A DNA stretch of 64,000 nt from Candidatus Altimarinota bacterium (lineage in GTDB: Bacteria > Patescibacteriota > Gracilibacteria > BD1-5 > UBA2023). The stretch spans positions 4,104 to 68,103 of the forward strand of contig JANOIH010000004.1 in assembly GCA_031407385.1 (NCBI GenBank), given 5' to 3'. The notes under the pieces are model-generated. The model saw nothing but the letters and a program-made list of their open reading frames with translations. It was not told the DNA's origin and made no database searches. Position numbers and translations under genes: made by a program. Shown here piece after piece: positions 3,443 to 62,803 of this stretch (the first letter of the stretch is position 1; each line of letters begins with the position of its first letter).

Positions 3443-3697
3443 CTAGAACCCAATCTTCTCCATCAGTTCCCCTTTTTCATGGAGTGCTGCGATATCCGTA
3501 TATCCACCGAGACAAGTATCTCACACGAATATCTGTGGAACAGTTCGCAACCGCGACTTCGCGACGATCTCCATAAGGAGCTCATGATTATCTGTGACAT
3601 CAACCTCTTCGTACTCGGCACCGAGGGATGTGAGGAGATTCTTCGCGAGGACGCAGTATGGGCAATTGTCTTTGCTGTAGAGGGTGATTGTTTTCAC
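3443..3697 (-). CDS. Glutaredoxin (CPYC active site)
   Basis: VKTITLYSKDNCPYCVLAK...TVPQIFV-G(TGA)-DTCLGGYTDI...; 84 aa; GTG start; stop TAG. Confidence 0.75.
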
Positions 3698-35092: not shown

Positions 35093-38000
35093 CTAGTGAC
35101 CACCGGAATCAGAAGAGTCAGATCCATGTGAATCTGGATCACCGAGTCCTCAGCTATCATCAATCTGCGAAGCTCCTCCAGGATTTGAGCCATCAGAATC
35201 TGGATTAGGATCTCCTTTTTTTGGTCAAATTTTTCCTCATGTTTTCTTTGGTGGAACAAAATTTGGTGGAGTTTTATCTAATCTGATTTTTTCTGCTTTT
35301 CCCGTCACTTCTGCACGTATATCTGTTGCATGCTTTGTTGATAATGTTGTAGTACTACCACCACTTTTCCAACTCTGGTAGTCTGATTCAGTATTGGTGC
35401 GCTCAGTATCAGCACTAAAGATACCATATGGATCAATACCCATTTTTTTCATCTCCTGGAAATATTCACTATTATCGATCAAGCTTGTAGCAAATTGCTT
35501 CTTTTGCTCTGGTGTTGTCCCTCCTCACTTATCTGTACGAGCACCGATCTGTTCTTGGAAATAATGAATAATCTCCCTCCTATATGCGAGATATTGCGCT
35601 CTCTGAAGAGTCACATCTCCATCAAAATACTTCTCATCGCGTAGTGCATCCATAGTTTTGATTACATATGCCCATATTTTCTCTTTACTCTCTTGATCCA
35701 TAGGCTTTCATCATCCACTATAACCAGAGAATTTTATCTTATTAAGCATGGAATTCATACTATTAAGACCATTTTCTCATCGAGCCAAGAGAATATTCTG
35801 ATATCCATGTTCGTCAAACCAGTCCTTACCGAAGTCGCTTCCAGGAATACTAGGATTCTTGAGCATCTCTGAATGTCACTCGGTCAACTTGTCTTGATAT
35901 CACTTCACTGTGACATTCTTATTTCATGCACGTTTGACCAACCAGCCATTTTGTCCTTGTAACATATCATGGAGTCATCTTCCTTGGTTGGCCTGCCAGA
36001 ACTTCATCATCGCTGTTGCTGGAGTCTCTCATTTATACTTTCCATCAGTAATTTTTTTATCTTCTGGACCATTGAGCATGCGATCACAGATACTATCGAA
36101 CTCACTGACAGCATTAGCAGATACTCGTCCTTGCTTGGCGAGATCATGGAGAGCAAGACGTACAGTATTACGATAGAGAGTATTAGATTCTTCGTTACGT
36201 AAGAAGCTGAATGCATGAAAACTCATCCCTCATCAAGCATATCACTTGAGTTTCTGGAGTGCAGTGTGTGAAGCATGTCGTGAATATCATCCACATGCCC
36301 AGATAAATGGCATAGCTTGAAATTCTGGGGATTTGATCTTACCAGCTACTGCTTCCATAGCCCCCATAGCCTTGTATATCTCATGTGTATTAAAATATCA
36401 TACTCATTTATTAAGGCGTCATTGAGCGCTTACCATCTGAGTCTGGTCCTTTCATTTTTTATGCGCGTTGTCAAATCCCTCGAATTTCCAAGTCTTCTCA
36501 AATCCTCCAGGTCATCCAATTGCCTTCACCACACCAGCAGCATAGGGATAATCACTCCAGTTCCCATCAATAATCTTCGTCAATGCATGCATGAGCTGTT
36601 CTTCTGTTGGCTCGTTTTCATGATCATCCATACTTCCCATCTCTTCTATAGCTTTTTTATAAGCCTTTTTTCTCCAGAAATTCAAATTTCCGATCTTAGA
36701 TGTAATGATGAACCCATCAAGGAATGCAAAATATCCAGGATCTGCAGTTTCAATATTATGTTGTGTAACTTTTGACTGATAATGCTTCACATCCTCGGCG
36801 TAGAAGTGACCATAATTCTTCAGCATATAGTTCATTGCGGCAACAACTTCTTCTGGACGACCATCGCGGTTATGTGCGATATGGATAGCTTTCAATCGAC
36901 CTGCAGGGCCAGGTATACCAAAGAGCTTATCCTCAATTTTCTGAACAATCTCCTTACTTCCATTGGTAATATCAGCATAGATCTGAGCGCCAACAGATGT
37001 CTCATCGAGCTTGAGAAACTTGGCAGTTCCCATGGCGAATCTCGCCGCATCGAGCTTGGCTCACTTCTCTAAGGTATGTTCGATACCGTGATACACCATC
37101 TCAAGTCATTTCCATATACTGGCAGGGTTCTGCCACTTCATCATACGACCAAAAAAGCTCCCTGTCATATGCGCATGTTCATGGTGATCTCCATGGAGAT
37201 CATGACTCGCTTCAGGAACGATGAGATCTTTGGTTGTTGCCTCAAGTTCTTGTTCCTGGAGATACCTTAGGAATGCCGGATAACTCATCGTACGCCATTT
37301 ATAGAGTTTCTTGAGTTTCTTATCAGCTCAGTGCTTCTTGGCATATGCCTTGATCTCTTCTATAGTATTCCCATTCTCATCGAACTCACCGAATCTGACA
37401 ATACCTCACTTTATGTACTCCATGCGGATATGTCCTCACTTTTTAGATTCGAAACATGTGATCTTTTTCTCTATCTCATGACCATGATCATCCTTTTCTT
37501 TGACGATGAGCTGTCCATCGTTGAGTTCTCAGGCAGTACCAAGTCCGAATTCTTTGAGCTGATCCGTCATCTCCTTATCTGTATCAACCTTGCCGATACG
37601 AGTGAATCCTGGAGTCTCAGAGAGTACGGCATATACATCAGATATCTTCTGATTGCGTAGTATATACCCATTACCTGCCATGAAGCTAACCGTGTCACCT
37701 ACGATCTCTCGTACTTGCCAGATTTCATTACTTTCTTTTTTTCCTGTTCCGATCTCAGTCGATGGTGCGATGAACGATGTCCCAGGCTCAAATCCAAATC
37801 CTCGTCATGTATCATCTATTACATTGAGCTTGGTCGCAATATTGGCTGCCGTAACAGGCTCTGCATCGATAGTTGGCCGTGCGTCATAAAACTTAGTGCC
37901 GTTACTATTCTCGGCAACCTCCTGATCTTCTTCAAGAAGTGAATTAAACTCAGTACTCGTCATCATTGATGCTCACTTCATCTTCTTCAGGGAAGCTGCG

Positions 38001-39376
38001 AGATCATCATACGAGAGGCTGAAGTGCTGAGAGCTCCTCAGGGCGCCCCCATCGACAGGAAGTCACTCTAGTTCCACTCCATAACCATGATTGTCTCCTA
38101 CCTCAATAGGATTTCCATCTGCATCTCGTACCTTTTTGATACGCATGAATTGTGCCCCTCACTTACTATCTTGGAATCGTATAACTGGATTCGATGTTTT
38201 GAGGAGATCGATATTCTCTATGCTCGTTCCTCCATCTGCAGTTCTCAGTCCGGTAGTGAGTGAGTCGATGAATCCTTCATACCGATCCCATGTATCATCA
38301 TACTCTTCTCATCTTTTGCGCGCTTCTGCCTGTTTTTGTCTTTTGATATTTCCGAGAATATCAGTTCATCTAGGATCTATAGATTCTGGCGCATCTATGA
38401 CAATCGTTCGAAATATTTCTTGCGAGAGTTTTCTACGAGCAGTATCGTTCGCGATAATGGTACCGATTTTTGTAGCATCAAAATCTGAGGCCGCTATCAT
38501 ATATGTCGTACTCGCCTCAAGTCCACGGATAAAAGAGTCCTGCTGATCTGGCATAAGGCTCGTGTATCATTTTCCCATCTCTTTTTCAGCAAATAACCTC
38601 AGGAAGTCTGGTGGTATCAATCCTGTGTCGTTCGCATGCTTGATAGTGATACTTGCTCACAGTGCTGACAGAACTTCTTTCTTGCGATCATTTGAGGCTC
38701 CTTGATACACCCCCAAGATAAAGTCGATATCAGAGCCATCTGGCACTTGATTAAATTCATGATAATTTTTATGGATCCCCCTGAATCGTGACTTCTGTTC
38801 AGGAGTGGTAAGATACATATTCTTATCATAAAATATCTGTTCAAAATCTCTTTTTTCTGAGGGATTCTCTCACTGAAGACCGGGAAATGTCTTATAAACT
38901 AATTTTCTCATGAGATGAGTACGTGAAGCATAGTTCTTGAGTTCATCTTCATCGAGATCACTCAGACTCGTGCTGAGGATAGTGCTCCAGTCAGCTCGTT
39001 GTGTTCTGATATTCGGGAAGAGTTCAAGTGCACGATCATGGGTCCGTTTTCTCATAAAAACAAGATCTATTGCCATTCGTAAGATCCTCTCTCCGATAAT
39101 ATTATCTCATGAATTCGTCGCAATATCCGCCTCTTTGATAGTATCCCACTCTGTTGAATTTTCACGACGAAGATCATTCATGTGAGTGCGGACTTTGTTA
39201 TGATATTCATCTCGCTTTGCCTTATAGGTATCAAATTTTTCTGGCTGAATTGGTTGACCAAATTCTCGAAAAATACCTTCCTTAAGAAGGTTTTCCACTG
39301 TATTTCCTGTTTTCTTTTTTTTCAGTACTTCAGATGACTCTGGAGATCATTCTGCTGCACTATTTAGTCCTGTCAT
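35093..39376 (-). CDS. Giant orphan protein (1,427 aa), no recognisable domain
   Basis: Every codon of the frame checked: 38 TGA and no TAA/TAG over 4,284 nt. ATG 39374-39376 (alternative 39401-39403), stop TAG 35093-35095. Joins 7 same-frame track fragments. Confidence 0.75.
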
Positions 39377-39481
39377 AATTGGTAGAGTTACTTTCCCTTG
39401 CATAATAGCAGAAAATACGAAAAAACACAAATAAAAAATCCATCTTTTAGATGAATTTTTTGAGATTCTTTTTTGAATGAA

Positions 39482-42791: not shown

Positions 42792-43400
42792 TTAATGTTG
42801 TGTCACCATGAAGTAATACGAGCTCCCGAGTGTCGTATCAGAGATTGTTCCCTTGTAACTCGCCTTCATATTCTGGAGGTTTGCGAGAGAGACAACCCCA
42901 TCAGATCCGATGTCGCTCCCTGTCAGATAGTTCCCGTTGGTGAGTACACTCATACGAGCGCCGAGAAGTGAATACTTATTCCCATCCTCTATCGCAGTGA
43001 AACTACTATAGAGATATGATCCGCTGCGTGTACATGGTCCTATGGGTAGTGTTAACTTGAGAGGATCTCTCATCGGCTTATTAAAAAGAAGCTCTCGGAG
43101 ATCGACGAATTGTTGATCTTTATTTTGAGCAATACTTGGTCGCTCGAAGAATACTTCGTCAGCACAATAGCCAAAAGCACCGACACTTGCATCATTGCTT
43201 GGCAGCATATCATGATCTTTGTAGTAGAGATCCACTACACGATCATAGTGTGAGAGGTCAGTGAATCGGGCAACATCTCGTGATCGATTCAGATATGGTC
43301 ACCCCATATAAAAAGCACCCGCAGCAAGAATCCCTATCATTGCAATTACGAGCATTATTTCAATAAGTGTAAATGCTTTAGCGGAGAATGTGTATTGCAT
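42792..43400 (-). CDS. Type IV pilin-like protein (prepilin N-terminal motif)
   Basis: MQYTFSAKAFTLIEIMLVIAMIGILAAGAF. 202 aa with one in-frame TGA. Confidence 0.75.
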
Positions 43401-43495
43401 AAGAGAAGTATAAGTAAATATATCTAGAGTATAGTCAACTTCCCTAAAAATCAAAAAGATCTTCGATTATACGAAAATCTTTTTGATCAGATGAG

Positions 43496-43987
43496 TTAGC
43501 GTGCCATGATATAGCCTATACCATAATTTTTCTGAAACAAACCATAATTATCCATATTTTGAGAACCTGACTGAAAACTCGAAAGTACTCATCCCGTATT
43601 ACCGTTACCCTGATTTTCCATAACTGCAGAGAATACAACAGAGTATGAACCACGTGTCAGTCATGTACCAGCACCATAAGAATTTGCTACACCACAGTGT
43701 GTTTTGTTCTTATCAACTGGTGTTGATCAGCCCATATATATACCCAGAGCGGCATTACTGACACAAGCATTGGTGGTGCCAGACATCACGAGATCATAAC
43801 TCCCTTTATCTAGAAAGAGGGCAGAAGCTGCCGTCATAATCTGTCCAACGTGAGATACACGAGCAGTATCACGAGACCTAGAGAGGTATCCAGAGATAGC
43901 TGGGAAGAGAGCGGCAGCGAGTACACCGATGATCGCGATCACGATCATGAGTTCGACGAGGGTAAATCCACGAGTAGTAAGCTTCAT
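43496..43987 (-). CDS. Type IV pilin-like protein
   Basis: MKLTTRGFTLVELMIVIAIIGVLAAALFPA. 163 aa with 3 in-frame TGA. Confidence 0.75.
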
Positions 43988-44126
43988 AGAATAAAGGTAA
44001 GAGTAGTAAGATAGCTAGAGTATACTACCCTGAGTAACTTCTCCAAATCAAAAAATACAGACTTATTGTTATCGATACGTATAACTAAAAATCCCAGTTT
44101 TCACTGGGATTCTGAAGAAGGAATAA

Positions 44127-44630
44127 TTATCTTGCGACCACGTAACCACCTGTAGCAGTAGTTACTCCTGGTGGATTTTTTACAAATGATCCTACAGTAT
44201 CCAATAATGCTGCTGGAGTTCCTTGATAACTAGTAATAACACCCGTATTAGCTGTACCCTTATTCTCAAGTACTGCAGATATCGCAATAGCCTGAGCACC
44301 ACCGATAGTCCCACTACCAGCACCATATGCTCCAACTTCTGTGGCACAATGTGTTGCAGCTCCATTTGTTGGAGTCTTACCACCCATATACTTATTCAGC
44401 TGACCACTATTTACACATGTTCCGTTAATTGCACCATTATAGGTTTCATTATCTTGAAAGAATGTAGAAGAAGCTGTAATGAGTTGTCCAACGTGAGATA
44501 CACGAGCAGTATCACGAGACCTGGAGAGGTATCCAGACATAGCTGGGAAGAGTGCAGCAGCGAGTACACCGATGATCGCGATAACGATCATGAGTTCGAC
44601 GAGGGTAAAACCACGAGTGGTAAGTTTCAT
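44127..44630 (-). CDS. Type IV pilin-like protein (paralog; first ~50 aa nearly identical to 43496-43987)
   Basis: MKLTTRGFTLVELMIVIAIIGVLAAALFPAMSGYLSRSRDTARVSHVGQ. Start taken at the Met 11 codons inside the track ORF. Confidence 0.75.
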   Translation of the reverse strand: MKLTTRGFTLVELMIVIAIIGVLAAALFPAMSGYLSRSRDTARVSHVGQLITASSTFFQDNETYNGAINGTCVNSGQLNKYMGGKTPTNGAATHCATEVGAYGAGSGTIGGAQAIAISAVLENKGTANTGVITSYQGTPAALLDTVGSFVKNPPGVTTATGGYVVAR

Positions 44631-44975
44631 AGAAGAATGAATGAAGAAATAAAACATCGGCATTATATACTCTAGGACTGCTTTACCAAATCAAAGAATA
44701 CAGACTTTTGTATATTCGTATGTATAGATACCAGAAGTAGATATAACACATTATTCACTCGATATCCCAGAGAAAGCTTGTCTGAGACAAGAACGTATGT
44801 TGTATATTTTACTCGAGAAATAAAATATGAATTGTCTATTTTTTCTTCTCATAGCCACGGAAGTTCGATATTTTCTATGATTTTGATATCTATAATAGCT
44901 AGATCTCTATACTCCCATGATCATATATATACAAAAACTCCCGTTCTTGCGAACGAGAGTCTTATAATAATCAGA

Positions 44976-49393: not shown

Positions 49394-49537
49394 AAACTTG
49401 CATTCTACAAAATAATCATATAATAGGCGTAAGTGAAACAAAGACCTGCCCATTGGGCGAGTCTTTTTTTTGACCAGAGTTGCCTCTTGTTTCTAGAAGT
49501 TCCATCCATCCAACTAATATCTAACCTACTATAATAT

Positions 49538-50647
49538 ATGTTCGACATATCCAAGATCGAAGCCGCCATCAACGTGATCGCCGCTGAGAAAAAAATCCCA
49601 AAAGAAAAGCTCGTCGAGATCATCGAGCATGCGATCAAAACAGCATACAAAAAAGACTACGCCAGCAAAGACGCCAATGTGAATGTAAAACTCGACATGG
49701 CAAGTGGTAAGTTCGATATCTCTATCGAGAAGACGATCGTCGCTGAAGTGACAGATCCAAGTATCGAGATCAGCTACGAAGATATCGGTGGTGATGAATC
49801 AGGATTTGCTCTCGGTGATACTGTCGAGATAGACGTCACTGATGAGGTCACCTCCTCAGAAGGATTCGGTCGTATCGCTTCTCAGGCAGCGAAGCAAGTC
49901 ATCGTCCAGAAGATCGGCGAGACTGAGAAGGAGAAGCTCTACCACCTCTTCAAGGACAAGGAAGATACGATCGTGAGTATGCGTGTGGAGCTCGTGGAGA
50001 AGAACCGTGTGGTTTTTGACTACAATGGGAACCAGGTCGTCCTCCCGAAGAGTGAGCAAAACCCGAAGGATAAATATATCCCAGGACAGCGTATGTACCT
50101 CTACGTCCGTAGTTGTGAGATCGATCCAGTCACTGGTCCTCGTGTGAATCTCTCTCGTAAGGATAAGGAACTCGTGGTGAAGCTCTTCGAGAACGGAACT
50201 CCAGAGCTCGAAGATGGTGTCGTCGAGATCGTCTCACTCGCTCGTATGCCAGGTGTAAAAACAAAAATCATCGTCGCCTCAGATGACGAAGATGTCGATC
50301 CAGCTGGATGTCTCATCGGACCCAAGGGTATGCGTGTCCGTACTATTGTCGATGAGCTCTTCGGTGAGAAGATCGATATCCTCAACTATACGACCAACCA
50401 AGAGGAGATGGTACGCCGAGCCCTCGTCCCTGGTATTGTAGAAAAAATCGAAATCGACGAAGAGAATAACATCATCCGCGCAACTGTGAAGGATGAGGAG
50501 AAGGCAAAGGTCCTGGGACGTGGTGGAACCAATATCAACATCGCCGGTGAACTCCTCGGATATCGTATCTCTCTCACGACTATAGAGGGTGAGAAGGTAG
50601 AGCCTACAGAAGCAGCAAGAGAAGTCGCTCTAACGCCTGCAATATAA
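49538..50647 (+). CDS. nusA: Transcription termination/antitermination factor NusA
   Basis: Intact 369-aa ORF with N-terminal, S1 and KH domains (GPKGMRVRTIVDEL, LGRGGTNINIAGELLG). Confidence 0.9.
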   Translation: MFDISKIEAAINVIAAEKKIPKEKLVEIIEHAIKTAYKKDYASKDANVNVKLDMASGKFDISIEKTIVAEVTDPSIEISYEDIGGDESGFALGDTVEIDVTDEVTSSEGFGRIASQAAKQVIVQKIGETEKEKLYHLFKDKEDTIVSMRVELVEKNRVVFDYNGNQVVLPKSEQNPKDKYIPGQRMYLYVRSCEIDPVTGPRVNLSRKDKELVVKLFENGTPELEDGVVEIVSLARMPGVKTKIIVASDDEDVDPAGCLIGPKGMRVRTIVDELFGEKIDILNYTTNQEEMVRRALVPGIVEKIEIDEENNIIRATVKDEEKAKVLGRGGTNINIAGELLGYRISLTTIEGEKVEPTEAAREVALTPAI

Positions 50648-50663
50648 TCCAGAACATCACAAC

Positions 50664-50694
50664 AGTCCTCCTAGATACTCGGGAGGACTTTTTT
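50664..50694 (+). terminator. Intrinsic terminator after nusA
   Basis: agtcctcc-tagatactc-gggaggact followed by tttttt. Confidence 0.6.
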
Positions 50695-50767
50695 GGTATA
50701 CAAAATATCCCAATATTTGACAGAACTCACACACTTATGATATGCTGATCTTATATAACTCTATCTC

Positions 50768-52063
50768 ATGAGGCAATCATTGATACATATCATTCGCAAA
50801 CCACTCTACCAGTGACTCTTGATCCTGAGTTGCATGGCTATCGGAGTATCATCTCTGGTGGCATGATTCGACATATCGTTGGATGGTATATTCGGTACAA
50901 TTCAAGCTCCTGGTACTTTCATAACATCTGGCAATGCTGGTCAGATCATCATCTCATCATGAGGAGCAACATGTGATCCCAATATAGGACTCTGTTATGA
51001 TAGCGTCACTCAGTCATTCTCTGGTTGAGTTTTTGCAGAAACGGTTGGATGGGTACAGTTCGGTGTCACTGGTCATCCTGTCACAGCGATCCTCCCAACA
51101 GATATCAATAGTCTCGCACCATGGACTCTCACGGGGTACGCCTGGAGTGACAATGCCGGATGGATCACACTCGGTTGTCTGGGTGACTGTAGTTACAGTG
51201 GAGTTGCCTATGTACCTAATAGTACCGTGAGCTTCACTGGTACTGCGTGGAGTGATACTCTAGGATATATAGAACTCACCTCGGGAACTGCCGACTTCAC
51301 CAACAAGGTAAAAGTGATCGGTAGTACCGCTGGAGGCAGTGCATGGAGTGTGAACTATGATATCGGAAGTACGTATGATACGGTGAAATTGGCACCATTC
51401 CTCTCTCAGGTTCGCAAGAATATAGCACTCCTAACACGGAATACTGGGACGGCCGCAGTCAATACAACTACCACTACAACCAAAGAATTCGGGAATATCA
51501 GATACTATAAGCTCACAGGCCAGACACTCAGAGTTATCGATGGAGCCTTCAGTACTGTAGATAGTATCATCGTCGAGTGAGGAGATATCGAGATAGAGGA
51601 TGACGTAGTAAAAGAAAGTACAAGATCACCCAGATCTATCATCGCAATCCAGAATAGCAGTGGGAGTGGTGGCAATATTTTTGTAAACAATAGTGTCAAA
51701 AATATATATAGTTCTCTCATCGCTGAATGATCGGTCTACTCTGGAGAAGATGCTACAACTCTCTATAACGATACGAGAGCCAAGATCGCCAATCTCCCGA
51801 AGACTCAACTCTATATCTATGGGAACGTCATATCTCGCAATACGATCGGATGAGCACTCACAGATACTCCGAGTTGTCCATATACGGTTGCGAATTGTAC
51901 CTATGATCTCGCAATCCGCTATGATCTCAACTACTTCAGATCATACGATAGACAAGTCATCAACAAGTCTGATACAACTGGATATGATGCATACTCAGTG
52001 ATCATCGAACGAGATCCGCGAAGCATAATCGATCCACCTCCAGGTATGAAAAATCTCCAATAA
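50768..52063 (+). CDS. Membrane-anchored surface protein with G.AWSD..GWI.L repeats
   Basis: TM LLILSCMAIGVSSLVAGF; repeats GYAWSDNAGWITL and GTAWSDTLGYIEL. 431 aa. Frame checked open with 8 in-frame TGA. Confidence 0.65.
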
Positions 52064-52102
52064 CACTATCTCATCCTCTTCGTCTTCCTAACCCTCCCTC
52101 CT

Positions 52103-53965
52103 ATGTCTCGCAACTCCTTCATCTGAGTCTCACTCATGGCGATGATCGCCATGAGTACTCTCGTCACGACGATATCAGCAGCTCCACCGATCAATCCTAT
52201 CGATCAAAGCCCGAATGTTCAAGGATTATTCGCTACCTATTTCCAGAATATGATCAACACACCCTGTGCTCTTGGATCTGTGATCTCAGGATTCTCATCT
52301 AGTGCAACTGATTATGGCAAGAATACGTGTGTATCTATCGTAACTACTCTCACAAACACGTATCCGACGCTCTTCGATATCACTTGGCTCAAAAATGGAG
52401 CCAATATCTCCTATATTGGAGGCAATGTGGGTATCGGAATAGCGAATCCTACAGCCAATCTCGAAGTTGCTGGTCAGATAAAGGTCACTGGAGGTGTGCC
52501 AGGGTTAGGCAAGTTCCTCACCTCAGATGCAACTGGTCTCGCGAGTTGGACAACATTCACGAGCGGATTGCCAGCAACAGCACTCTTTGGTCAGACTCTC
52601 AGATATGATGGTCTCTCTTGGGTTGCCAATAGTAATATATATGACAATGGATTCAACATCGGTATCGGTACGCTCTCCCCTCTCTACAAGCTCGAAGTCA
52701 ATGGTAAGATATGATCTCACACCACACTCTCCACAGACAACGATAATACAGTGACTACCAAGAACTATGTCGATGCGAGACTCGCAAGTCTCTGTACGAG
52801 TCTAGGTGGTACATGGAACAACGCCACAGACATATGTACTCCTGCAGTGACCTATAGTTGGCAATTGGGAACAACATATGGAGCATGTAGTGTTACTTGT
52901 GGTGGTGGGACACAGAGTGCACCAGCAGTATGCAAGCAGAGCAATGGAACTATAGTTGCTGATGCTCTCTGTGCTGGAGCCAAGCCTGCAGCTATGAGTC
53001 AGAGCTGTAACACACAGGCATGTATACCAGTAGTCAATGGAGGATGGTCAGTATGGGGAGGAGGATCATGTAGTGCGAGTTGTGGAGGGGGTACTATGAC
53101 ACAGACTCGTACTTGTAATAATCCTGCACCATCAGGTGGTGGGGCTAATTGCGGAGGATCATCAACACAGTCTATTAGCTGCAATACTCAAGCATGTGTC
53201 GTAGCAGTCAATGGATCATGTGGAGGATCAGCCAATACTTGTGGAGCTGGTAGTCCATCTGCATACTCAGCTGGAAGCTGTGGAGGATCTCAGACATGGA
53301 GTTGTCTCGGTTCAGGAGGAGGAACAAATGCTACAAGTTGTAGCATTGCCAATGCTGCATGTGCACTTGCTTCGTGTACCTATCCAGGTGGAACTGAATA
53401 CTGGGGTTCATGTGGCGTATCCATATGAGCGACTACTATTGCTCATGGAGGAAGTGCATGACCATTTACGAATACAGCCTGAGGATATGTGGGAAGTATT
53501 TCTTACTGATGTAATAATGGTACGTTTACTGTAGCGAGTCAATCTTGTAGTCCGGCTCCTGTGAATGGTTCATGTGGTGGTGGGGCCAATACTTGTGGGG
53601 CTGGTAGTCCATCTGGATACTCAGCTGGTTCGTGTGGAGGATCTCAGACATGGAACTGTCTCGGCTCAGGAGGAGGGAGTAGTGCTAATTGTAGTATTGC
53701 CAATACTGCATGTATCAACTATACTTATACGGCCTTCTCTGCTGCATCTGGGCAGGCATGTAGTGCGAGCCATCCTGGATATATAGAGGTAGCAATATGA
53801 TGTAGACGTGATGCAAATGGTGTATTCGACGGGTATGATCCATGGCCTATGCCAAATTGTCCATGAGCAGCAGATATGGCTGGTACACGGTTCCGACATT
53901 GTAAAGATCCCGATGTACCTGGCAGTTGGGATCAGTCCTTTGATGGAAATTGGATAGTATTTTAG
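52103..53965 (+). CDS. Secreted protein: tail-fibre-like NVGIG repeats, two thrombospondin type-1 repeats, two Cys/Gly-rich repeats
   Basis: 620 aa across 9 in-frame TGA. TSR consensus GGWSVWGGGSCSASCGGGTMTQTRTCNNPAPSGGGANCGGSSTQSISCNTQAC. Stop TAG 53963-53965. Confidence 0.7.
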
Positions 53966-53980
53966 AATACCCTAGAGTGC

Positions 53981-54015
53981 AAAAAATCCGTCCCGAATAC
54001 TCGGGACGGATTTTT
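53981..54015 (+). terminator. Intrinsic terminator
   Basis: aaaaaatccgtcccg-aatac-tcgggacggattttt. Confidence 0.65.
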
Positions 54016-54195
54016 AATATGATACACTAATTGACCTTGCATTCAACTCCCTCGATCACATTATTATCGATAGAGGGTGCATTAATCATGAGTCATACCT
54101 CTGTGATTCGAACGATACGATATCACCCACCTTCGAGAATCAGTTCACCACCTGGCAAGTGAGCAGAGAACACGCTAGATAAAAAGAAGACTCAG

Positions 54196-54312
54196 GTCTT
54201 AGGGCCTGGTAGAACCAATATCAACATCGCCGGTGAACTCCTCGGTTATCGTATCTCTCTCACGACGATCGAAGGGAGTCAGGTCGATCCAACAGAAGTC
54301 GTTGCAGAATAA
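54196..54312 (+). pseudogene. Orphan duplicate of the nusA 3' end (last ~38 codons)
   Basis: 54212-54266 matches nusA 50526-50580 at 54 of 55 positions. Reads ...GPGRTNINIAGELLGYRISLTTIEGSQVDPTEVVAE-stop. No upstream nusA body. Confidence 0.75.
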
Positions 54313-54424
54313 TGGACATGCCACGTATGGCATGTCTGACGTTCCAAAAATCCCCTCAGAATAATTCTGAGGGGATTTTGTATGGATGAAAGGTTATTCA
54401 AGTCTACCTATATAGAAACAAATA

Positions 54425-54808
54425 TTAAATAAGTCCTGGTGCAATATCTAAGATATCACCCTCCTCAATTTTTCTTCCTGCTGGAACTTCGTATATTGAA
54501 ACCATATTTCAATCTTCCGTATTTTGTTGAATGAGTAACTGTAATCTTCCGTCAATATTTGTAAGTTTCATTGCCGTGGCTGATATATCATTATATCCGA
54601 TGGCATTATCAATAAGATTTCGATTATCTCAGTATACATCTGCAAGAAAATCTAAATTTAGAAATTTAGAAACTTTCTGATCTGATCAGCTAATCCAATT
54701 ATCCATAATGGCATTGCGAAAACTCTTGTTTCCTATAATGTTATCCTTGAATTTCATACGATTCACAGTTGTTCAGTCATGGATAGCTTGTATGATATCC
54801 GCTGCCAT
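54425..54808 (-). CDS. Hypothetical protein (127 aa)
   Basis: ATG..TAA frame open with 5 TGA. Overlapped at its 5' end by a second 69-aa frame (54733-54942). Confidence 0.4.
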
Positions 54809-55025
54809 CTGCTTTCATAAGGTATCTTTTGTATCTTGGATACTAGTTCAAGAGCAGGTGTGTCTTGTTGTAGTCAGCTGGTTTTAAGTTGTTCTTTAGC
54901 ACGTTCATACATTGAGGGTTCAAATTTTGGAGATTCTGACATATTGGTAAAAAATAAGTGATAAAGTAAAAATATCTTATCATATGTTGCCCCCACCCCG
55001 TCAAATCCTGAACATCTTTTGTCAC

Positions 55026-55058
55026 AAAAATCCCCAACTTTTTACGGTTGGGGATTTT
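55026..55058. terminator. Intrinsic terminator of the adhesin gene
   Basis: aaaaatccccaac-tttttac-ggttggggatttt. Confidence 0.6.
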
Positions 55059-55073
55059 CTTATACTAGAACTT

Positions 55074-58000
55074 CTACAGACTCATGATATACTTCATAAC
55101 TTCGACACTTTTCTCGATCTTCACACGCTCACGCTGCATGATGCGGATGATGTAGGCGAGAGCGCGAGATTCACGAGATGGGACGTTGAGAGTCTGGAGA
55201 GTAGTGGCATCAGAGTAGGCACCTTGGAGTGCTTCTGATTTTTGCGGAGCTAAGAGTATCAGAGAGCGAGTGATATTCTGTATGAGCTGACGTCCTGACT
55301 GTCGTATCATCTGGGCTCGATCAACAGATGATACTTGATCAGCCTGGGCTGATACGACTGCATCATGGATCGGAGCAAACAGGGAGATATATGAGTTGAG
55401 GAGGTATCCAACTGGCAGAGTCGTACCTGAGAGAGTTCGCTTCGAGAGGAAGAGTTCTGATACAAGTCCTGGAGTTGTATTAGTAGGAGAATTGGTATTT
55501 ACTGTATTCGGGAGATTCACCGTTGGGAATGATTGTGATCCTCCTCCGCCACCTCCTGGACCAGCTACTGGAATGGTCGAGATAACTGGTGGATGTGGAT
55601 CGATCACTGTGATCATCACAGTTACTGGAACTGTAGTAGATATGCCATCAGTCACCGTATAGGTGAAGTTGTCTGATCCAACATATCCGAGAGCTGGAGT
55701 ATAGACGAGGAGTCCTGTCGATGAGAGAATACCAGTCCCATACAGAGCTGGTGTCACGAGTGTGAAGGTGAGTCCGACACTATCGACATCAGTTGCGGTG
55801 AGTGAGCGAGTCAGTGAGTTATTGGTCTCGAGGTATCCAGTCAGTGAGCCTCCAGAGAGGGTCGTTCCTGAAGAGATCACCATGTTCCCTGTGACACTCG
55901 AACTCGATGGGAGAGAGACTGGAGTATCGTTCACACAAGTGACATCACTGATCGTCACCGTGGTGACTGCCGAGAGTGCGAGAGCCGTATCTCGTGCCTG
56001 GTAGGTAAATGTTACAGGGCTTACAGTACATGCATTCGCGGTAGGAGTAAATACCACTCCAGTTCCGACAACCGCGACACTTCCCCCTGATGCAGGTTGA
56101 GTGAGTGATGTGATCGAGAGGGGGTTATTTTCTACATCCGTGTCATTGGCAAGGACTGTGATCATAAGTGGTGTGTCCTCCGTTGCGGAGACAGACTCTC
56201 CAGTTGCAACTGGGGCATCGTTCACACAGGTGAGAGAGACAGAGATTGTTCCCGTATTGGAGAGCCCTCCGAGTGGATCTGTGATACGATAGTCCACTGA
56301 GTCAGCACCACAGGCGTTCGCGGTTGGAGTATAGACGAGGTTATTTCCTGAAGCGGTGACGGATCCGTTAGAACCATTGGTAAAGGTCGAGAGCGTGAGA
56401 ACTCCTCCTTCGACATCCGTGTCATTGATGACTGGTGAGATGATGAGTGTCGTATCTTCAGTTCCGGTAGTAGTATCGTTATTGGCGACTGGGAGATCGT
56501 TCATAGCGGTGATCGAGATACTTCCTGTGACGACGAGTGAGTCATTGACTCCGTCAGAGACATGGAAGGTGAAGGTATCTGAACCGTTCGTATTCGCAGT
56601 TGGCGTATATGTGAAGGCACCTGTTGATGAGAGAGTGAGTATTCCTTGTGTTACGTTGGTATCAAGGATATATGTGAGTGGAGTTCACTCGATATCTGAC
56701 CCCGTGAGGACATCCGCAAGTGGGGTATCTTCGGAGGTAGTGAAGGCTCCTGAATATGCTGTTGGAGGAGTATTATAGTTGTTTGGTTGGACTGTGATAT
56801 CTACAGTACTCGTGAGAGAGAAGAGGACCCCATCAGAGACATGGAAGGTAAAACTCTCAGCTCCCGTATATCCAACTGGTGGTGTATATGAGAATACACT
56901 TCCTGTGATGACCAGTGATCCAGTTGCAACAGGAGTATCGATGATATAGCTAAGTATATCTCCATCGATATCTGTCGCTGAGAGTGTCCCCGTGAGGACA
57001 TGTCCACTATCCGTCTCGATATTGCCTGTGACATTGTATGTTGATCCTGTGGATGTCGGAGCATCATTGACACAGGTGACAGTCATAGTCACGATACCCG
57101 TATTCGACAGAGATCCTGAGAGATCCGATATACTGTATGAGAACGTATCTATTCCACAATAGTTCGCGACTGGAGTATACGTCAGGAGATTCCCTGAGGC
57201 ACTAACACTTCCGGATGCAGCTTGTGAAAAAGCAACAAGACTCATGCTGTCTCCGAGATCTGGATCAGTGTCATTACCAAGTGGGGTTGTGTCGAGTGTT
57301 CCATCTTCTCCTACCGTGAAGCTATCTGCGATTGCTGTTGGAGCATCGTTCACAGCGGTTATCGTGAGAATTACGGTCTCGGTACTCGAGTTCAGGACAC
57401 CATCTGTGACATGGAAGGTAAAACTATCTGAACCGTTATAGTTCGCATCTGGCGTATAGGTAAAGATCCCTGTTGATCCGAGTGAGAGTGTACCGTTCGA
57501 TACATCTGCATCGAGGACAAAAGTCACTGGTGTCAGATCTGGGTCAGATCCGGAGAGAGTGGTATTGATCGCGACATCTTCTGTCGTGAGGAACGATCCT
57601 GAGTCAGCGACTGGAGCCTGATTCGTAGTAGATACAGTGATATTGACGACTCCAGTATTGGAGATATTCCCATCTTGATCGATGATCGAGTACTGTATTG
57701 TATCTGGCCCGAGGTAGAGAGAGTTCGGCGTATAGCGGATCTGATTCGCTACGATAGAAGCAGTCCCGCTCGTTGGAGCGGTGAATCCTGTGATCGTGAG
57801 CGTCTGTGCTCCATATGGTTGATCTGCATCGGTATCATTGGCGATGACGTCTATATCTGCAGTCGTATCCATCTGCACATTGACCGTGTCATCTGTCGCA
57901 ACTGGGACATCCTGTACAGCCGTGACGGTGAAGGACATCGTGGCTCCTGATGAGTCCACGATACCATCATTGGCGACGAAGTTGAAGCTATCTGAACCAT

Positions 58001-60329
58001 TGTAGTTTGCGTTCGGAGTATATGTGAATCCTGATCCTACGATCGAGAGTGTTCCGTTGGTTGGGAGAGTCGTTGCAGAGAACGAGAGGGTATCTCCATT
58101 GATATCTGATCATGAGAATACATCCATAACAGCCATATCCTCAGAGACAGAGAAACTACCAGAAGACACCTCAGGAGCAAAGTTAGAACCTGGGGCGACG
58201 GTGATATATACAGTTCCTGTATTCGAAGTAGCACCTGACTGATCGGTGATCGTATACATGAAGCTATCAGCTCCCATGTAAGCAATCGATGGAGTATATT
58301 CGAACTGAGTACCATTGACTGCGAGAGTACCATTGGATGGCAGAATAATACCAGTGATACTAAAAGTCTGAGACTCATACCCACTATCTATATCTGTATC
58401 ATTCGCGAGGACATCGAATGTTGCCATGACACCTCCTGTTGCGTTCATATTATCATCGATCGCGACTGGAGTATCGTTGGTACAAGTAGTAGTCACCGTT
58501 GCTGTAACTGGATCTGAGTATCGGAGAAATTGGTCAAATGCTCTCCAGTCAAACGCATCTACTCCACAGAAGTCTGGATTCGGCGTATATTCCACGAGAC
58601 CTGAGACTCCATCGACTGTTATTGTTCCATTGGTTGGATCGGTGAACTTCTCGAAATAGACAGTATCTCATGATGAGTCTGTCGCCATCATCGTACCGGA
58701 GAACATCATATCTTCTGATCCAGTGAGAAAGAGTGGAGCTGTAACAGGTGGCTGATTCTGTGTCGTGATATCCGCGGTACAGATATTATCTCCGATATTG
58801 TTCGTAGCAGTGAGGATATAGTTGTTCACACTATCGTTGAGTGGTGGATAGTATACTCCTGATCAGACAGCTGATACAGAGGTATCCATACTACCACCTG
58901 TTGCTGTTGGTTCGGTGAGGATGGTCGAGAGTGTATTGGTGACATTCCATGAGAGTGTGACAGACTCACCATTGGCGATACTTCCAGCAGAAGTATTGAA
59001 GCTACACACAGGTGGACGGAGAATATTAGGAGCATTGTTCCAGAATACGATCTTTGCACTATATGCATTGACATTGGTTGGCCAAGCGACCGTTGTATTG
59101 TTGGTATCGACATACTGTGGACAGACTCCACCTGGACACGCCTTATTCACAGCACTGGCTCCAGTATTGACGAGGAGATGAGCTTCATTGGTTCGTGGAT
59201 TGAGTACTCCAGTACTGATATAGTTCTTATAACCGAAGTGAGTAAAAGTAACGGCGCTCGTATCCAAACTAAGGATATCATCCTTATTATAGGTCGTCAT
59301 ACCTCCTGAAGCAGTCTGGATCTCTACGATTGGAAGAATTGCCTTATACGTATTGAGATATGTATTTGCTGAGACTGTAGCAAGTGTGCCGACCGCATCG
59401 AACTGATCATGAGTCGATATCATCGGATGATCTGGATGCCAAGTGAGGATCGTATTCGAGTCGATCGTATTGTTTTCAGCGCTTCCGAGGGTTGTCGATA
59501 TGATAGAGATCGCAGACTCCTGTGGATTGTAGAATGTATTACTGTTGATAGTGTTCGTATCCGTATCAGTGAGTACTATAGACTTGTTTCCGCCTGAGAA
59601 GATATTGCCCGTGATAGCATTACCAGATGATGTAGCACCAAGAGCAACCCCAAGAGTTGAACCAGTGAGATTGGATACGAAGTAGTTCTCGACTATAGAG
59701 GTATTGTAGGCTCATTCTACTGAGATACCTGCATTGATCGTATTTTTGAACGTGTTGTGTGTGATAGATACATCCGTATTGGCACCCAGGAGGATACCAG
59801 TACCACCAGAGGTAAAATCCGAATCCTGGATGATGATATTCGTTCCACCGAGTGAGAGATCTACTTGGGTAAGAGTTGTACTTGGGAATGTGATACCTGA
59901 GAGAGTCACGTATGAAGCTCCTGAGAGGAATGATATATTGGTCGCTCCGGTAGACCCAAGTACTGGCTTATTGTTCGCGGTACAACTACTATATGAACCC
60001 ACGACGATCTGAGATCCTGAGATACCAGAGTCATCTATAGCGAGTGGATCCGTCCACGTCTCTCCACACTTCAGGAGGATCTGATCTCCAGGGAGGAAGG
60101 CCTGCGCACTCACATGTGTGAGCGACTGCCATGGAGTCCCGAGAGTGAGTCCATTGTTCGCATCACTTCCGAGTGTCGCATCCACATAATAATTAGTATT
60201 ATTCGCGAACGTGATCTCTGTGAGTGGAGAGAAGAGTTGGAGAGTGAGAGAGACGAGCGTTATCAGAGCGACAGCTCGTGATGGTGATGACTTTTGTAAC
60301 ATAGGGAGAGAAGTAAAATACTCTCTCAT
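55074..60329 (-). CDS. Giant surface adhesin (~1,751 aa): signal peptide, right-handed beta-helix, ~11 cadherin/VCBS-like repeats
   Basis: Five same-frame track ORFs joined over TGA at 56685, 58110, 58668, 58863 and 59712; gaps checked free of TAA/TAG. Repeats of NDAP.A..D......ED....I.VL.NDTD.D. Stop TAG 55074-55076. Start ATG 60329 or 60302. Confidence 0.8.
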
Positions 60330-60451
60330 TTGATCACAATTATCACATACAAGCAAAATATTCGCCTTGCCGAGCAAGAGAAATATTTTGTTATAATTGA
60401 ATTGCGGCCTTCATCACTTGCTTTTGATCTCGCTTTCTATATCATACTCTT

Positions 60452-61558
60452 ATGACAAGTGTCAAAAAGAAAAAAATCCTCATCATGACCGCGACTGGGA
60501 AGTCCAATCTCGGAGATGAACTCATCCTTCGGGAGGAGATCCGATTTTTGCGTAGCCGTTATGGCGACGTCACTATCACTGTGTGTACGTATAACCAGAA
60601 GACCAACCTGATAGCAGATCAGACCGGGATCAAGTTCATCTCCTACTTTCCGAATCATCTCTTGACGAGACCATTTCAGAACATCTGGTATTTTTTCGTG
60701 AATATTTTTACCATCTACCGCTCAGATATCGTCATCATCGGTGGTGGTGGGATCGTATTCGATAACGAACCTGGAGTATCCTTCAACAACCTTATCCGTC
60801 AGTGGTACTTCCGCACCAAGATCGCCCGTATAGCAGGATCGCTCCTTCTCTTCTGGGGGATATCGCTGGAAGTGACGATGATATCGAGCAAGCTCGCACT
60901 GAAGTCCCTCTTTGTACCTGGAGATTTTATCCTCGTGCGAGACACTCGTAGCAAGGAACTCCTCGAGGCCCTCGAGGTACCAAGTGTCGTGATACATGAT
61001 ATAGTATTCCTCTATGAGAACGAGGGACTGAAGGCTCTCCCAGGGGTCAAGAAAAAACGTGTCGGAATCTCTGTACGTGGAGGGTTCCTCGAAGGGACAG
61101 AAGAGGCTATCCCACAGATCTATGACTACCTCGTCGCGGATGGATACGAACCGATATTCCTCGTGTTCTCGACCGAGTGAAGTATCGAGCAGAACGATAG
61201 TCTCTATATCAAGAAGCTCATGTCCGGACGCACGTACAACGTGACCAAGACCATCGACCAGACACTGAACGTGTTTCCTTTTCTCTATGCGAGTATCGCG
61301 ATGCGGTTCCATGCCTGAGTCCTCTCATGCGTCCATGAGACCCCTTGTATCCATATGTCGTATGGACCGAAGACGGATGAGCTCGTGAACCTCCTGGAGG
61401 CTGAGCACCTCACGATACGGCCGAACGAACTTTCTCTTGCTATTTTCCAGAAGATGTGGCAGAATCTCACTACCCGCTATGATGATGAGTCTGATCGACT
61501 CAAGCAGAGGAACTCCTATATCAAAAAAGAGCTCCGTCATAGTCTCGAAACTCTCTAA
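60452..61558 (+). CDS. Polysaccharide pyruvyl transferase family protein
   Basis: GKSNLGDELI and DIVIIGGGGIVFD motifs. 368 aa over TGA 61178-61180 and 61316-61318. Confidence 0.65.
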
Positions 61559-61570
61559 CTCTCATACTAT

Positions 61571-62110
61571 ATGGACTGGAAGACACTCACAGCAAAAGCA
61601 CAACCATGGATCGATAAAACGAAGCCATGGATCGATAAAACGAAGCCACTCGTCGAAAAGGCAAAAACCTATGGATCGAGTGCTGTCTCTCTGGTCGCGA
61701 AGCAGATCGAAGCGACTCCGATGTTCCTCACGACCGAAGAGGCATATACCAACCACATCACCGCACGACGCTCTATCCTGATCGCCTATGATAGCCGAGA
61801 TCCTCTGAGTGAGTCCATCCGCCTCATGATGCCGATCTGGGCAACACAGGCATGGACGGATGCAGCAGAACTGAAGTATATCGAGATATCAGGCAACGAG
61901 GAACTCGCCCGTAACCTCCACATAGTCGGTCCACTCGAGATGCGTATCTCCTACATCGGTGATGAGTATGCCCGTCTGCATACTGAGACTGAGGTATCGA
62001 ACTGGTGGAAGGCACGATGTTATCGCAAAAATACTGAAACGGTCGCACAAGAACCCGAAGAAGCAACTCAGACCGATCCACTCGCATGAGTCCAACCTAC
62101 GAAGAAGTAA
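61571..62110 (+). CDS. Hypothetical protein with tandem PWIDKTK duplication
   Basis: 172-aa ORF extended over TGA 62087-62089 to TAA 62108-62110. Confidence 0.5.
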
Positions 62111-62147
62111 GATATAGTATACTTTTTACTTGTAACTCTCATACTCT

Positions 62148-62357
62148 ATGACTATCACTCCCCTCGAACTCCTCTACATCGCACTCACGATCGCAACCAT
62201 ATCACTCACCATCCCACTCTCGATGATCCTCTGGCGGACCTATCGGATGATGGACCGTGTCGAGGATATCCTCGCCTTCGTAGACCGTATCGTCGGTTAT
62301 GGGAAGGAGATCGAGAAGATCCCGATGGCGATCATCGAGAAGATCATGGGGAAGTAA
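62148..62357 (+). CDS. Small membrane protein (69 aa)
   Basis: TM LELLYIALTIATISLTIPLSMILW. Stop TAA. Followed by a terminator. Confidence 0.5.
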   Translation: MTITPLELLYIALTIATISLTIPLSMILWRTYRMMDRVEDILAFVDRIVGYGKEIEKIPMAIIEKIMGK

Positions 62358-62360
62358 TTC

Positions 62361-62396
62361 AAAAATCCCTCCTGAACACTCGGGAGGGATTTTTTT
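62361..62396 (+). terminator. Intrinsic terminator
   Basis: aaaaatccctcc-tgaacac-tcgggagggattttttt. Confidence 0.65.
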
Positions 62397-62658
62397 GATT
62401 TTTCGGAGCTTTGCCTCTGATTTCTTTTTTGCTTCTTTCTTTTTGTGAATTTCGTAGTACCAATTGCTTCTTCCGTTATGTTGAATTTTGACTATCTGTC
62501 AGCGAATATTTTCGTAAAAATTCCGAACGTTTCTTAGTCTTTGGAATTTTAGAAAATGAGCTGGAAACAGATAGCAAAATGAGGCATGGAAGATCTGGAA
62601 GGCTTTTTTGGAGATTATCTGGCGAGAAACGAGCCCGATAAGATCCTATGCAGAGCTG

Positions 62659-62679
62659 TTACTTTTTGCCAAAAAGTAA
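62659..62679. repeat. Hairpin repeat TTACTTTTTG-CCAAAAAGTAA (copy 3 of 3)
   Basis: Lies inside mosaic repeat region 62400-62800, which also shares ggattgcttc and cctcgcgggtg-cgg segments with 19790-19825. Confidence 0.55.
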
Positions 62680-62803
62680 GGGGAATGGGTTCTAGGAACC
62701 TGGATTGCTTCACCCCAAGGGTACTTCTCCCCCAGGAGGACTTCCATACTTCGCAAGGGGCGCAGCTTCGCAAAGGGGCGCGACCTCGCGGGTGGCGGGA
62801 TCT

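Follow-up and report, generated by a model that had tools for sequence, protein, structure and literature searches.

Two Thrombospondin Type-1 Repeats in a Predicted Secreted, Fibre-like Protein of a Code-25 Patescibacterium

The Locus and Its Genetic Code

The stretch of DNA analysed here, 64,000 nucleotides of contig JANOIH010000004.1 (assembly GCA_031407385.1, Candidatus Altimarinota bacterium) and hereafter called the window, carries downstream of nusA a gene for a modular protein of 620 residues, predicted to be secreted, that contains two consecutive thrombospondin type-1 repeats (TSRs). The features of the locus are collected in Table 1. A sequence-only reading of the window had placed the repeats at 52856–53197, i.e. 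residues 252–365 of the open reading frame (ORF), and had described the length of the protein, a signal-peptide-like N terminus, two NVGIG...LEV.G motifs and two Cys/Gly-rich repeats, all of which are present in the sequence.

Table 1. Features of the TSR locus and its surroundings, in window coordinates
Feature	Position	Strand	Description	Basis or remark
nusA	49538..50647	+	housekeeping anchor	96% identical in L001, about 86% in L083
Upstream partner gene	50768..52063	+	431 residues, N-terminal transmembrane segment, no known domain	ends 39 bp before the TSR gene
TSR gene, whole	52103..53965	+	predicted secreted modular protein, 620 residues	code-25 ORF; TAG stop at 53963-53965
Signal peptide	52103..52180	+	Sec-type (MSRNSFIGVSLMAMIAMSTLVTTISA)	read from the sequence; putative cleavage site
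N-terminal base domain	52181..52417	+	79 residues, 2 Cys (...YFQNM..PC...GF...TC...)	common to Peptidase_S74 fibre proteins of relatives
Tail-fibre-like repeat	52418..52711	+	one unit of ~95 residues, two bounding NVGIG...LEV.G motifs (52418-52486, 52646-52711)	PHROG match
Linker	52748..52837	+	TVTTKNYVDARL helix and small 2-Cys hairpin	AlphaFold2 model of residues 205-441
TSR module 1	52853..53023	+	residues 251-307, long-loop ADAMTS type; 6 Cys, CSVTCGGG, 1 Trp, no Arg ladder	PF19030; pLDDT 88-96
TSR module 2	53039..53197	+	residues 313-365, canonical thrombospondin/properdin type; WSVW, CSASCGGG, QTRTC, 6 Cys	PF00090; alignment with TSP-1 TSR3; Foldseek
Cys/Gly-rich (CG) repeat 1	53207..53362	+	6 Cys, ~52 residues, VNGSCGG.ANTC.AGS.S.YSAGSCGGSQTW.C.G.GGG....CSIANAAC	sequence
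Mid domain	53363..53548	+	4 Cys (...IAHGGS...GCNNGTF...)	orthologue comparison
CG repeat 2	53561..53713	+	6 Cys	sequence
Variable C-terminal tip	53714..53962	+	83 residues, acidic, 4 Cys, net charge -4	orthologue comparison
Large adhesin	55074-60329	-	1751 residues, beta-helix, Big_9 and cadherin-like	within the 8.8-kb segment downstream of the TSR gene
Polysaccharide pyruvyl transferase-like gene	about 60.4-61.5 kb	+		assigned by eye; within the 8.8-kb segment

The ORF contains eight in-frame TGA codons (residues 8, 204, 442, 453, 460, 469, 566 and 588, and none within the segment 252–365); it is uninterrupted only if TGA is read as a sense codon and falls into fragments under the standard bacterial code. 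Throughout the window, reading TGA as sense raises the content of ORFs of at least 150 residues from 13.4k to 49.3k residues. In two S-adenosylmethionine (SAM)-dependent methyltransferases of the window TGA falls on the glycines of motif I, and these proteins score 26.1 and 37.1 bits against Pfam with glycine at the TGA sites versus 17.1 and 25.0 bits with tryptophan. Because glycine outscores tryptophan here, translation with table 25, as adopted in the earlier reading, is justified. The start codon of the TSR gene is backed by the conserved N termini of its orthologues. The NusA protein of the window is 77% identical to that of a metagenome-assembled genome (MAG) of Candidatus Gracilibacteria (L054), and a near-identical homologue of the S1 protein of the window carries the name "Patescibacteria group bacterium"; on such comparisons, assignment of the host genome to a code-25 patescibacterium related to Gracilibacteria is supported. 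The bacterium would be tiny and probably lives attached to other cells.

The public copy of the upstream partner protein (P0151) has tryptophan at all seven TGA sites, i.e. its contig was translated in the collection with TGA as Trp, and two further entries, P0001 and P0002, represent code-25 genes of greater length that were cut short by translation with code 11. Domain statistics drawn from such collections for code-25 lineages will be biased.

Both Modules Are Assigned as Thrombospondin Type-1 Repeats

Both modules score above the curated Pfam cut-offs. Module 1 matches the TSP1_ADAMTS profile (PF19030) with 39.1 bits (cut-off 23.8, E 9e-10) over all 55 positions of the profile, and module 2 matches TSP_1 (PF00090) with 31.6 bits (cut-off 21.6, E 1.8e-7). 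In a phmmer search of the PDB the top matches were human thrombospondin-1 (TSP-1) TSR2-3 (7yyk, 3r6b and 1lsl) and properdin, with E values from 3e-19 to 5e-18, and module 2 aligns nearly column for column with TSR3 of TSP-1. Both modules have six cysteines in group-1 spacing together with the CSx[ST]CGGG motif, and both can be aligned cysteine for cysteine with the repeats of TSP-1 and properdin. A BLAST coverage table calculated without composition correction is uninformative for sequences so rich in cysteine and glycine and was not used.

An AlphaFold2 model of residues 246–368, built from a 19-row alignment, has a mean predicted local distance difference test score (pLDDT) of 83.3, with values of 88–96 over module 1 and 61–88 over module 2, and predicts the elongated, three-strand antiparallel TSR fold for both modules. 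All Foldseek matches of this model in the PDB at E ≤ 0.001 are TSR-containing proteins (TSP-1, properdin and UNC5, probability 1.00), followed by ADAMTS13, complement C6 and semaphorin-5A. Superpositions of single repeats gave a root mean square deviation of 2.2–3.1 Å over 53–59 columns, with 56% sequence identity to ADAMTS13 TSR1.

The earlier reading, which had called the agreement of the second module with the TSR consensus almost perfect, holds for the W-x-x-W motif, the CSx[ST]CGGG motif and the six-cysteine spacing, but the third tryptophan is missing and strand B reads Q-T-R-T-C, with one arginine instead of R-x-R. Module 1 has a single tryptophan and no arginine in strand B, and neither module possesses the full Cys-Trp-Arg layered core (WxxWxxW on strand A and RxRxR on strand B). 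This reduction leaves membership in the family intact because the core is typical of TSRs rather than strictly defining and is reduced in some accepted members. Taken on profile scores, matches to solved structures and the predicted fold, both modules are genuine TSRs and the domain assignment is secure, as the sequence-only reading had proposed. The two outcomes that this reading had named as refuting it, the want of a significant HMM match or a predicted fold at odds with the TSR, did not arise.

The two modules are almost uncharged; TSR2 has one charged residue versus 9–13 in the human TSP-1 repeats. Sequons for C-mannosylation (WxxW) and O-fucosylation (Cxx[ST]CG) occur in both. The enzymes of C-mannosylation and of POFUT2-type O-fucosylation are not known from bacteria.

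The Other Modules of the Protein

The Sec-type leader is conserved in four orthologues (58–69% identity in L001, L002 and L083). It has neither a lipobox nor a prepilin motif (no G-F-T-L-I-E, and no match to PF07963 in the Pfam scan). The base domain that follows has no match in Pfam or NCBIfam and is 35–44% identical to the corresponding part of the Peptidase_S74 (S74) proteins of two more distant relatives, L084 and L086. The next segment matches PHROG family phrog_9942, "tail fiber protein" (E 2.6e-7), and its repeat unit is 55–67% identical to tandem units of large bacterial proteins, some of which also have PF13884 (Peptidase_S74) or collagen repeats; PF13884 itself has no match in the 620-residue protein at E ≤ 10. 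NCBIfam gave no match for either the TSR protein or its partner.

A model of residues 205–441, with an overall pLDDT of 61, is helical at residues 19–29 and reaches 83–89 in blocks 3–5, whereas the CG repeat remains below 50. This six-cysteine repeat has no match in Pfam or NCBIfam, and the idea that it is a diverged TSR was rejected at an hhalign probability of 0.5%. A repeat of the same kind (~51 residues, VNGSCGG.ANTC.AGS.SGYSAGSCGGSQTW.C.G..GG...CS.ANAAC) recurs in P0100, P0111, P0113 and P0116 and at 3614–6619 of L054, and in the four P-numbered proteins often forms long arrays behind prepilin-type N termini and alongside TSRs. It is a candidate for a new family of extracellular domains. 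Segments resembling the mid domain are also found in two of these prepilin-TSR proteins, P0111 and P0116. A homology search with residues 421–620 returned, besides the orthologue in L083, seven matches, mostly through the CG repeat, of which P0213 may reach weakly into the tip. The protein has 36 cysteines in all, and their number is even in every module.

A Conserved Pair of Genes with Exchangeable Distal Modules

Comparison with related contigs shows the TSR gene to be the second of a conserved two-gene unit, consisting of a putatively membrane-anchored partner and a fibre protein with exchangeable distal modules. The order nusA, 431-residue partner, TSR gene is common to three related metagenome contigs. 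Identities in L001 are 77% for the partner and 72% for the TSR protein, and in L002 71% and 66%; the gene order of L083 is mgsA, nusA, partner (77%), TSR protein, CNNM, DUF5665, yidC and rnpA. The partner is syntenic in L084 and L086 as well. Its family, which has no known domain, comprises about 62 hypothetical proteins (P0151–P0212), and the only member with a name is from Candidatus Gracilibacteria. The partner consistently adjoins fibre-base proteins that end in either TSRs or Peptidase_S74. The partner itself shows repeated G.AWSD..GWI.L motifs and a Thr-rich stretch.

Downstream of TSR1 the orthologues differ by entire modules, which have been gained, lost or reordered with breakpoints at the module boundaries. 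The window protein reads TSR1-TSR2-CG-mid-CG-tipA, that of L001 TSR1-TSR2-CG-tipA-like (where the contig ends), that of L083 TSR1-TSR2-TSR3-tipA, and that of L002 TSR1-CG-TSR2-CG-mid-tipB. The TSRs show the highest identity to the window protein of all domains (75–93% for TSR1 and 72–89% for TSR2). The mid domain is 68% identical in L002 and absent from L001 and L083, and the tip is the most variable part, being 48% identical in L083 and replaced in L002 by an unrelated domain. In L084, where the partner is 46% identical and nusA again adjoins the pair, the gene after the partner encodes a protein of 331 residues with the same base and NVGIG motif and with a Peptidase_S74 domain (61.4 bits) in place of the TSRs; in L086 (partner 41%) it is an S74 protein of 574 residues with the same base that adjoins the partner.

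The TSR gene had earlier been placed within an inserted island, and this is not borne out. The GC content at 52–54 kb is normal (0.470 versus a window mean of 0.456), no integrase was seen near the gene, and the nearest tRNA is at least 46.7 kb away. The window is collinear with L083 from 49514 to 53902, whereas the segment directly downstream of the TSR gene, 53966–62795 (about 8.8 kb), has no counterpart in L083; beyond it the DUF5665-CNNM block resumes, inverted relative to L083. The island assignment is unsupported because the gene is part of a conserved pair at nusA, syntenic in L001, L002 and L083, and the strain-variable DNA starts just outside it. For the same reasons we rejected the gene as cargo of a genomic island or mobile element.

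The tail-fibre-like features invite the question of whether the gene belongs to a phage or prophage and not to the cell. The PHROG match and the S74 proteins in the same slot of relatives would be in keeping with such an origin, as would the occurrence of TSR modules on 28 viral contigs of IMG/VR. The flanks, however, are housekeeping genes (nusA upstream and, in L083, CNNM, yidC and rnpA downstream) with no phage genes among them, the synteny persists in relatives whose partners have diverged to 40–46% identity, and among the viral contigs nothing is closely related to the base and fibre part. Together with the missing integrase and flanking tRNA, the housekeeping synteny and the base without viral relatives contradict a prophage, and we regard a phage origin of the gene as highly improbable.

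Farther upstream, the minus strand of the window encodes an ORF of 1436 residues (35093–39403) that contains 38 in-frame TGA codons, is rich in Lys and Glu and has no obvious family by eye.

Thrombospondin Repeats in Other Prokaryotes and in Viruses

One genome per GTDB species was scanned with the TSR pair, through an alignment of six sequences and two peptide patterns taken from bacterial TSRs, which yielded 139 confirmed TSR loci. By raw count, the best 80 of the 139 include 28 loci from candidate phyla radiation (CPR)/Patescibacteria genomes (five Gracilibacteria and three Peribacteria), 10 from Myxococcota, 8 from Bdellovibrionota/Oligoflexia, 4 from DPANN archaea, 3 each from Planctomycetota and Acidobacteriota, 2 from Omnitrophota, and others. 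The pool thus sampled appears to be weighted towards cell-attached lineages. In these 80 loci the TSR-bearing ORF starts with a signal or lipoprotein-type leader in 70 cases and with a prepilin leader in 2. Among the Gracilibacteria, the TSRs of L054 follow SLH domains (SLH 46.8 bits, TSP1_ADAMTS 81.3 bits), those of L062 follow a prepilin N_methyl motif (PF07963, 39.3 bits; the motif is also present in P0111 and P0116), and those of L017 and L027 lie in small secreted proteins with the CG repeat.

Several observations stand beside this survey. One cultured isolate among the best 80 loci is the sulfate reducer Desulfatibacillum alkenivorans DSM 16219 (L039, NZ_FQZU01000010.1 90038-102562), whose protein, likewise of 620 residues, has about seven TSR motifs behind a signal-peptide-like N terminus. 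In 5 of the 80 prokaryotic loci (L054, L006, L023, L043 and L050, from several CPR lineages) nusA lies less than 6 kb from the TSR gene, as it also does in the window and its relatives, which by a rough estimate is above chance for genomes of ~1 Mb. Three consecutive genes on the minus strand of the window (42792–44663), 8–10 kb upstream of the TSR locus, encode type IV pilin-like N termini (e.g. MKLTTRGFTLVELMIVIAIIGVLAA), noteworthy in that related genomes join TSRs to prepilin leaders. The 28 viral contigs with TSR modules (L088–L115) include the giant-virus MAG GVMAG-S-3300010158-109 and contigs of 150–380 kb.

In two other Gracilibacteria (L009 5155-6537 and L062 4927-6696) TGA encodes the conserved glycine of the TSR motif NGGW, and gene calls with code 11 or code 4 truncate or mistranslate these TSRs. 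TGA at a conserved TSR glycine shows long residence of TSRs in code-25 genomes. About 52 alignable columns cannot resolve deep branching, so an analysis of nearest neighbours was used in place of a formal tree, with the ascertainment caveat that the loci had been retrieved with bacterial patterns. The nearest 12 neighbours of each window module are all prokaryotic. For module 1 these are 59–67% identical, the best eukaryotic match being from a prasinophyte alga (59%), and for module 2 they are 69–76% identical, the best eukaryotic match being oyster SCO-spondin (65–67%). In 150 of the 153 prokaryotic modules the nearest neighbour from another locus is also prokaryotic.

The oyster match, and the published view that the TSP1 domain is animal-derived and was laterally transferred to apicomplexans (PMC3417536), could be taken as a sign of contaminating eukaryotic DNA, of a chimeric assembly or of TSRs acquired from a eukaryote only very recently. 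We consider this effectively refuted. The eight TGA codons read as glycine share one ORF with a bacterial leader, syntenic orthologues occur in at least two other metagenome samples, TGA encodes a TSR glycine in other Gracilibacteria, the composition is normal, and the nearest neighbours are prokaryotic. From these sequence comparisons we infer that the window TSRs come from an established prokaryotic pool of extracellular TSRs and not from a recent eukaryotic import.

A Putative Surface Fibre with Stalk and Tip

We favour, as the probable reading, a surface fibre or adhesin in which the TSRs and six-cysteine repeats form a stalk and the variable tip confers specificity, with TSRs drawn from the prokaryotic pool. 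The protein would form a fibre outside the cell, attached to the surface by its base, by the membrane-anchored partner or by both. The TSRs and six-cysteine repeats would act as small, rigid, disulfide-stapled, protease-resistant and nearly uncharged stalk modules, and the fast-evolving C-terminal tip would provide binding specificity for the surface of a host or prey cell. An extracellular location is indicated by the conserved N-terminal leader and by the even cysteine count in every module. The notion of a fibre base draws on the match to phrog_9942, on the repeat units shared with PF13884 proteins and on the S74 proteins that carry the same base beside the same partner; that of surface display draws on the SLH-TSR protein of L054 and the prepilin N_methyl-TSR protein of L062. 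An extracellular adhesive role, which the earlier reading had also proposed, is plausible from the context, and the lifestyle of related bacteria agrees with it. Host dependence, with attachment by means of surface appendages, has been inferred for code-25 Gracilibacteria (PMC11452946), and in Vampirococcus, a predatory relative, large proteins with adhesion domains make up a fibrous cell surface (PMC8080830).

Several points weigh against this reading. No LPXTG, SLH, lipobox, prepilin leader or C-terminal transmembrane segment is recognisable in the 620-residue protein, and simple release is possible. The TSR variants have no S74 domain, and a trimeric fibre is hypothetical for them. The non-TSR modules have no usable model, with the CG repeat at a pLDDT below 50. 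The survey gives raw lineage counts, uncorrected for how many genomes each lineage has, and its search patterns came from bacterial TSRs. Finally, the high conservation of the TSRs could equally mean that they bind a conserved ligand.

This last point leads to the main rival, in which the TSRs themselves are the adhesive elements, binding a glycan or protein of the host surface in the manner of Plasmodium TRAP/CSP or thrombospondin-1, and the rest is scaffold. TSP-1, properdin and TRAP provide eukaryotic precedents for binding by TSRs. No other module is conserved as well as the TSRs (72–93%), as would be expected of a constrained binding surface, module 1 contains the hexapeptide CSVTCG, and relatives have TSRs joined directly to pilins and SLH anchors. 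Of the cationic Trp-Arg groove with which sulfated glycans are bound, however, little is present, since TSR1 has no ladder arginine and TSR2 only one charged residue, and the classical sulfated-glycan mode is disfavoured for want of this basic groove. The part that varies among orthologues is, moreover, the C-terminal tip and not the TSRs. With the TSRs most conserved and the tip most variable, a stalk role fits at least as well as direct ligand binding, and we hold binding by the TSRs to be a serious but doubtful possibility.

The protein might instead have a non-adhesive extracellular role, as a component of the envelope or surface layer or as a secreted effector, in which the TSRs would serve as generic spacers of high stability. 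Pfam and NCBIfam gave no recognisable anchor motif or domain for ligand binding, a related Gracilibacterium carries its TSRs in an SLH protein of the kind typically found in surface layers, and disulfide-rich repeats would confer stability outside the cell. We nevertheless think such a role decidedly unlikely, given that a variable tip, shuffling of whole modules and divergence faster than that of the adjoining nusA are typical of proteins with an interaction interface, and that the base is homologous to tail-fibre-like proteins.

Beyond the surface fibre that we favour, a broader and more speculative proposal would be that TSRs are a shared extracellular toolkit of attached and predatory prokaryotes (CPR, DPANN, Bdellovibrionota, Myxococcota and Omnitrophota), mounted here on a surface fibre that is related to phage tail fibres, has an exchangeable head and forms with its membrane partner an organelle of host recognition. 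We consider this unlikely as a whole. Were it true, the history of the TSR would not simply be that of an animal invention that spread later, and the TSR could fold and function without C-mannosylation or O-fucosylation.

That bacterial proteins can contain TSP1 domains is already known from automatic annotation. The JGI label of P0001, which is part of the orthologue in L002, reads "Thrombospondin type 1 domain", and in NCBI proteins of Myxococcota go under the name "thrombospondin type-1 domain-containing protein" (e.g. P0045, Myxococcota, and P0093, Labilithrix). Type-1 repeats of prokaryotes, CPR included, are not discussed in any paper that we found in the searchable literature, where the sole match for the PVC superphylum concerns TSP type-3 repeats. 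Since the domains are already annotated, the informative part is the context of the locus and the prokaryotic pool, and it is these, with the leads they give, that are of value, the element itself belonging to no new class. What is known of how ultrasmall episymbionts recognise their hosts and keep hold of them hardly extends past type IV pili. The TSR locus provides a concrete candidate that can be tested, a conserved pair of genes in which the distal modules of the fibre protein are exchanged from strain to strain. As the survey shows, CPR bacteria, DPANN archaea and predatory bacteria make routine extracellular use of an "animal" fold, which is there fused to pilins, SLH anchors and fibre bases. 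Structural biology would gain minimal TSRs that carry hardly any charge, have a reduced Trp-Arg core and are produced in the absence of eukaryotic glycosylation enzymes.

Comparison with Known Systems

Module 2 most resembles the repeats of thrombospondin-1 and properdin (PF00090; 1lsl, 3r6b, 7yyk and 6rus), with which it shares NGGW..W, CSxSCGGG, xRxC, NNPxPxxGG, the six cysteines of group 1 and, by prediction, the three-strand fold. It differs from them in having no third tryptophan, one ladder arginine (Q-T-R) and a single charged residue, and the window TSRs lie in the tail-fibre-like context of a bacterial protein rather than in a matricellular one. Module 1 resembles the C-terminal TSRs of ADAMTS and ADAMTS-like proteins (PF19030) in its long C3-C4 loop and KP...Q.CN...C tail, but has no metalloprotease, disintegrin or spacer context and no strand-B arginine, and its closest relatives are prokaryotic.

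The apicomplexan proteins TRAP and CSP offer a plausible functional analogy, as their extracellular TSRs likewise belong to an organism that has to fasten itself to another cell, and TRAP (4hql and 4hqo) is among the Foldseek matches, although weakly (E about 0.05–0.08). Unlike them, the window protein has no vWA domain, transmembrane segment, cytoplasmic tail or basic patch for binding heparan sulfate.

Among prokaryotic systems, the named bacterial TSP1-domain proteins are also secreted, belong to the same family and share the consensus CSxSCGGGTQ...SCNTQAC, but they are mostly plain arrays of TSRs behind a signal or lipoprotein leader, whereas the window protein combines two TSR subtypes with a tail-fibre-like base, six-cysteine repeats and a variable tip, in a two-gene locus of a code-25 genome. 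Prepilin-fused TSR proteins differ from it in their leader, that of the window protein being an ordinary one with no PF07963 match. The Peptidase_S74 tail-fibre-like proteins (PF13884) share its N-terminal base and NVGIG...KLEV.G repeat and, in L084 and L086, stand beside the same partner family; in the window protein the distal end is instead an array of TSRs, six-cysteine repeats and tip, with no S74 domain.

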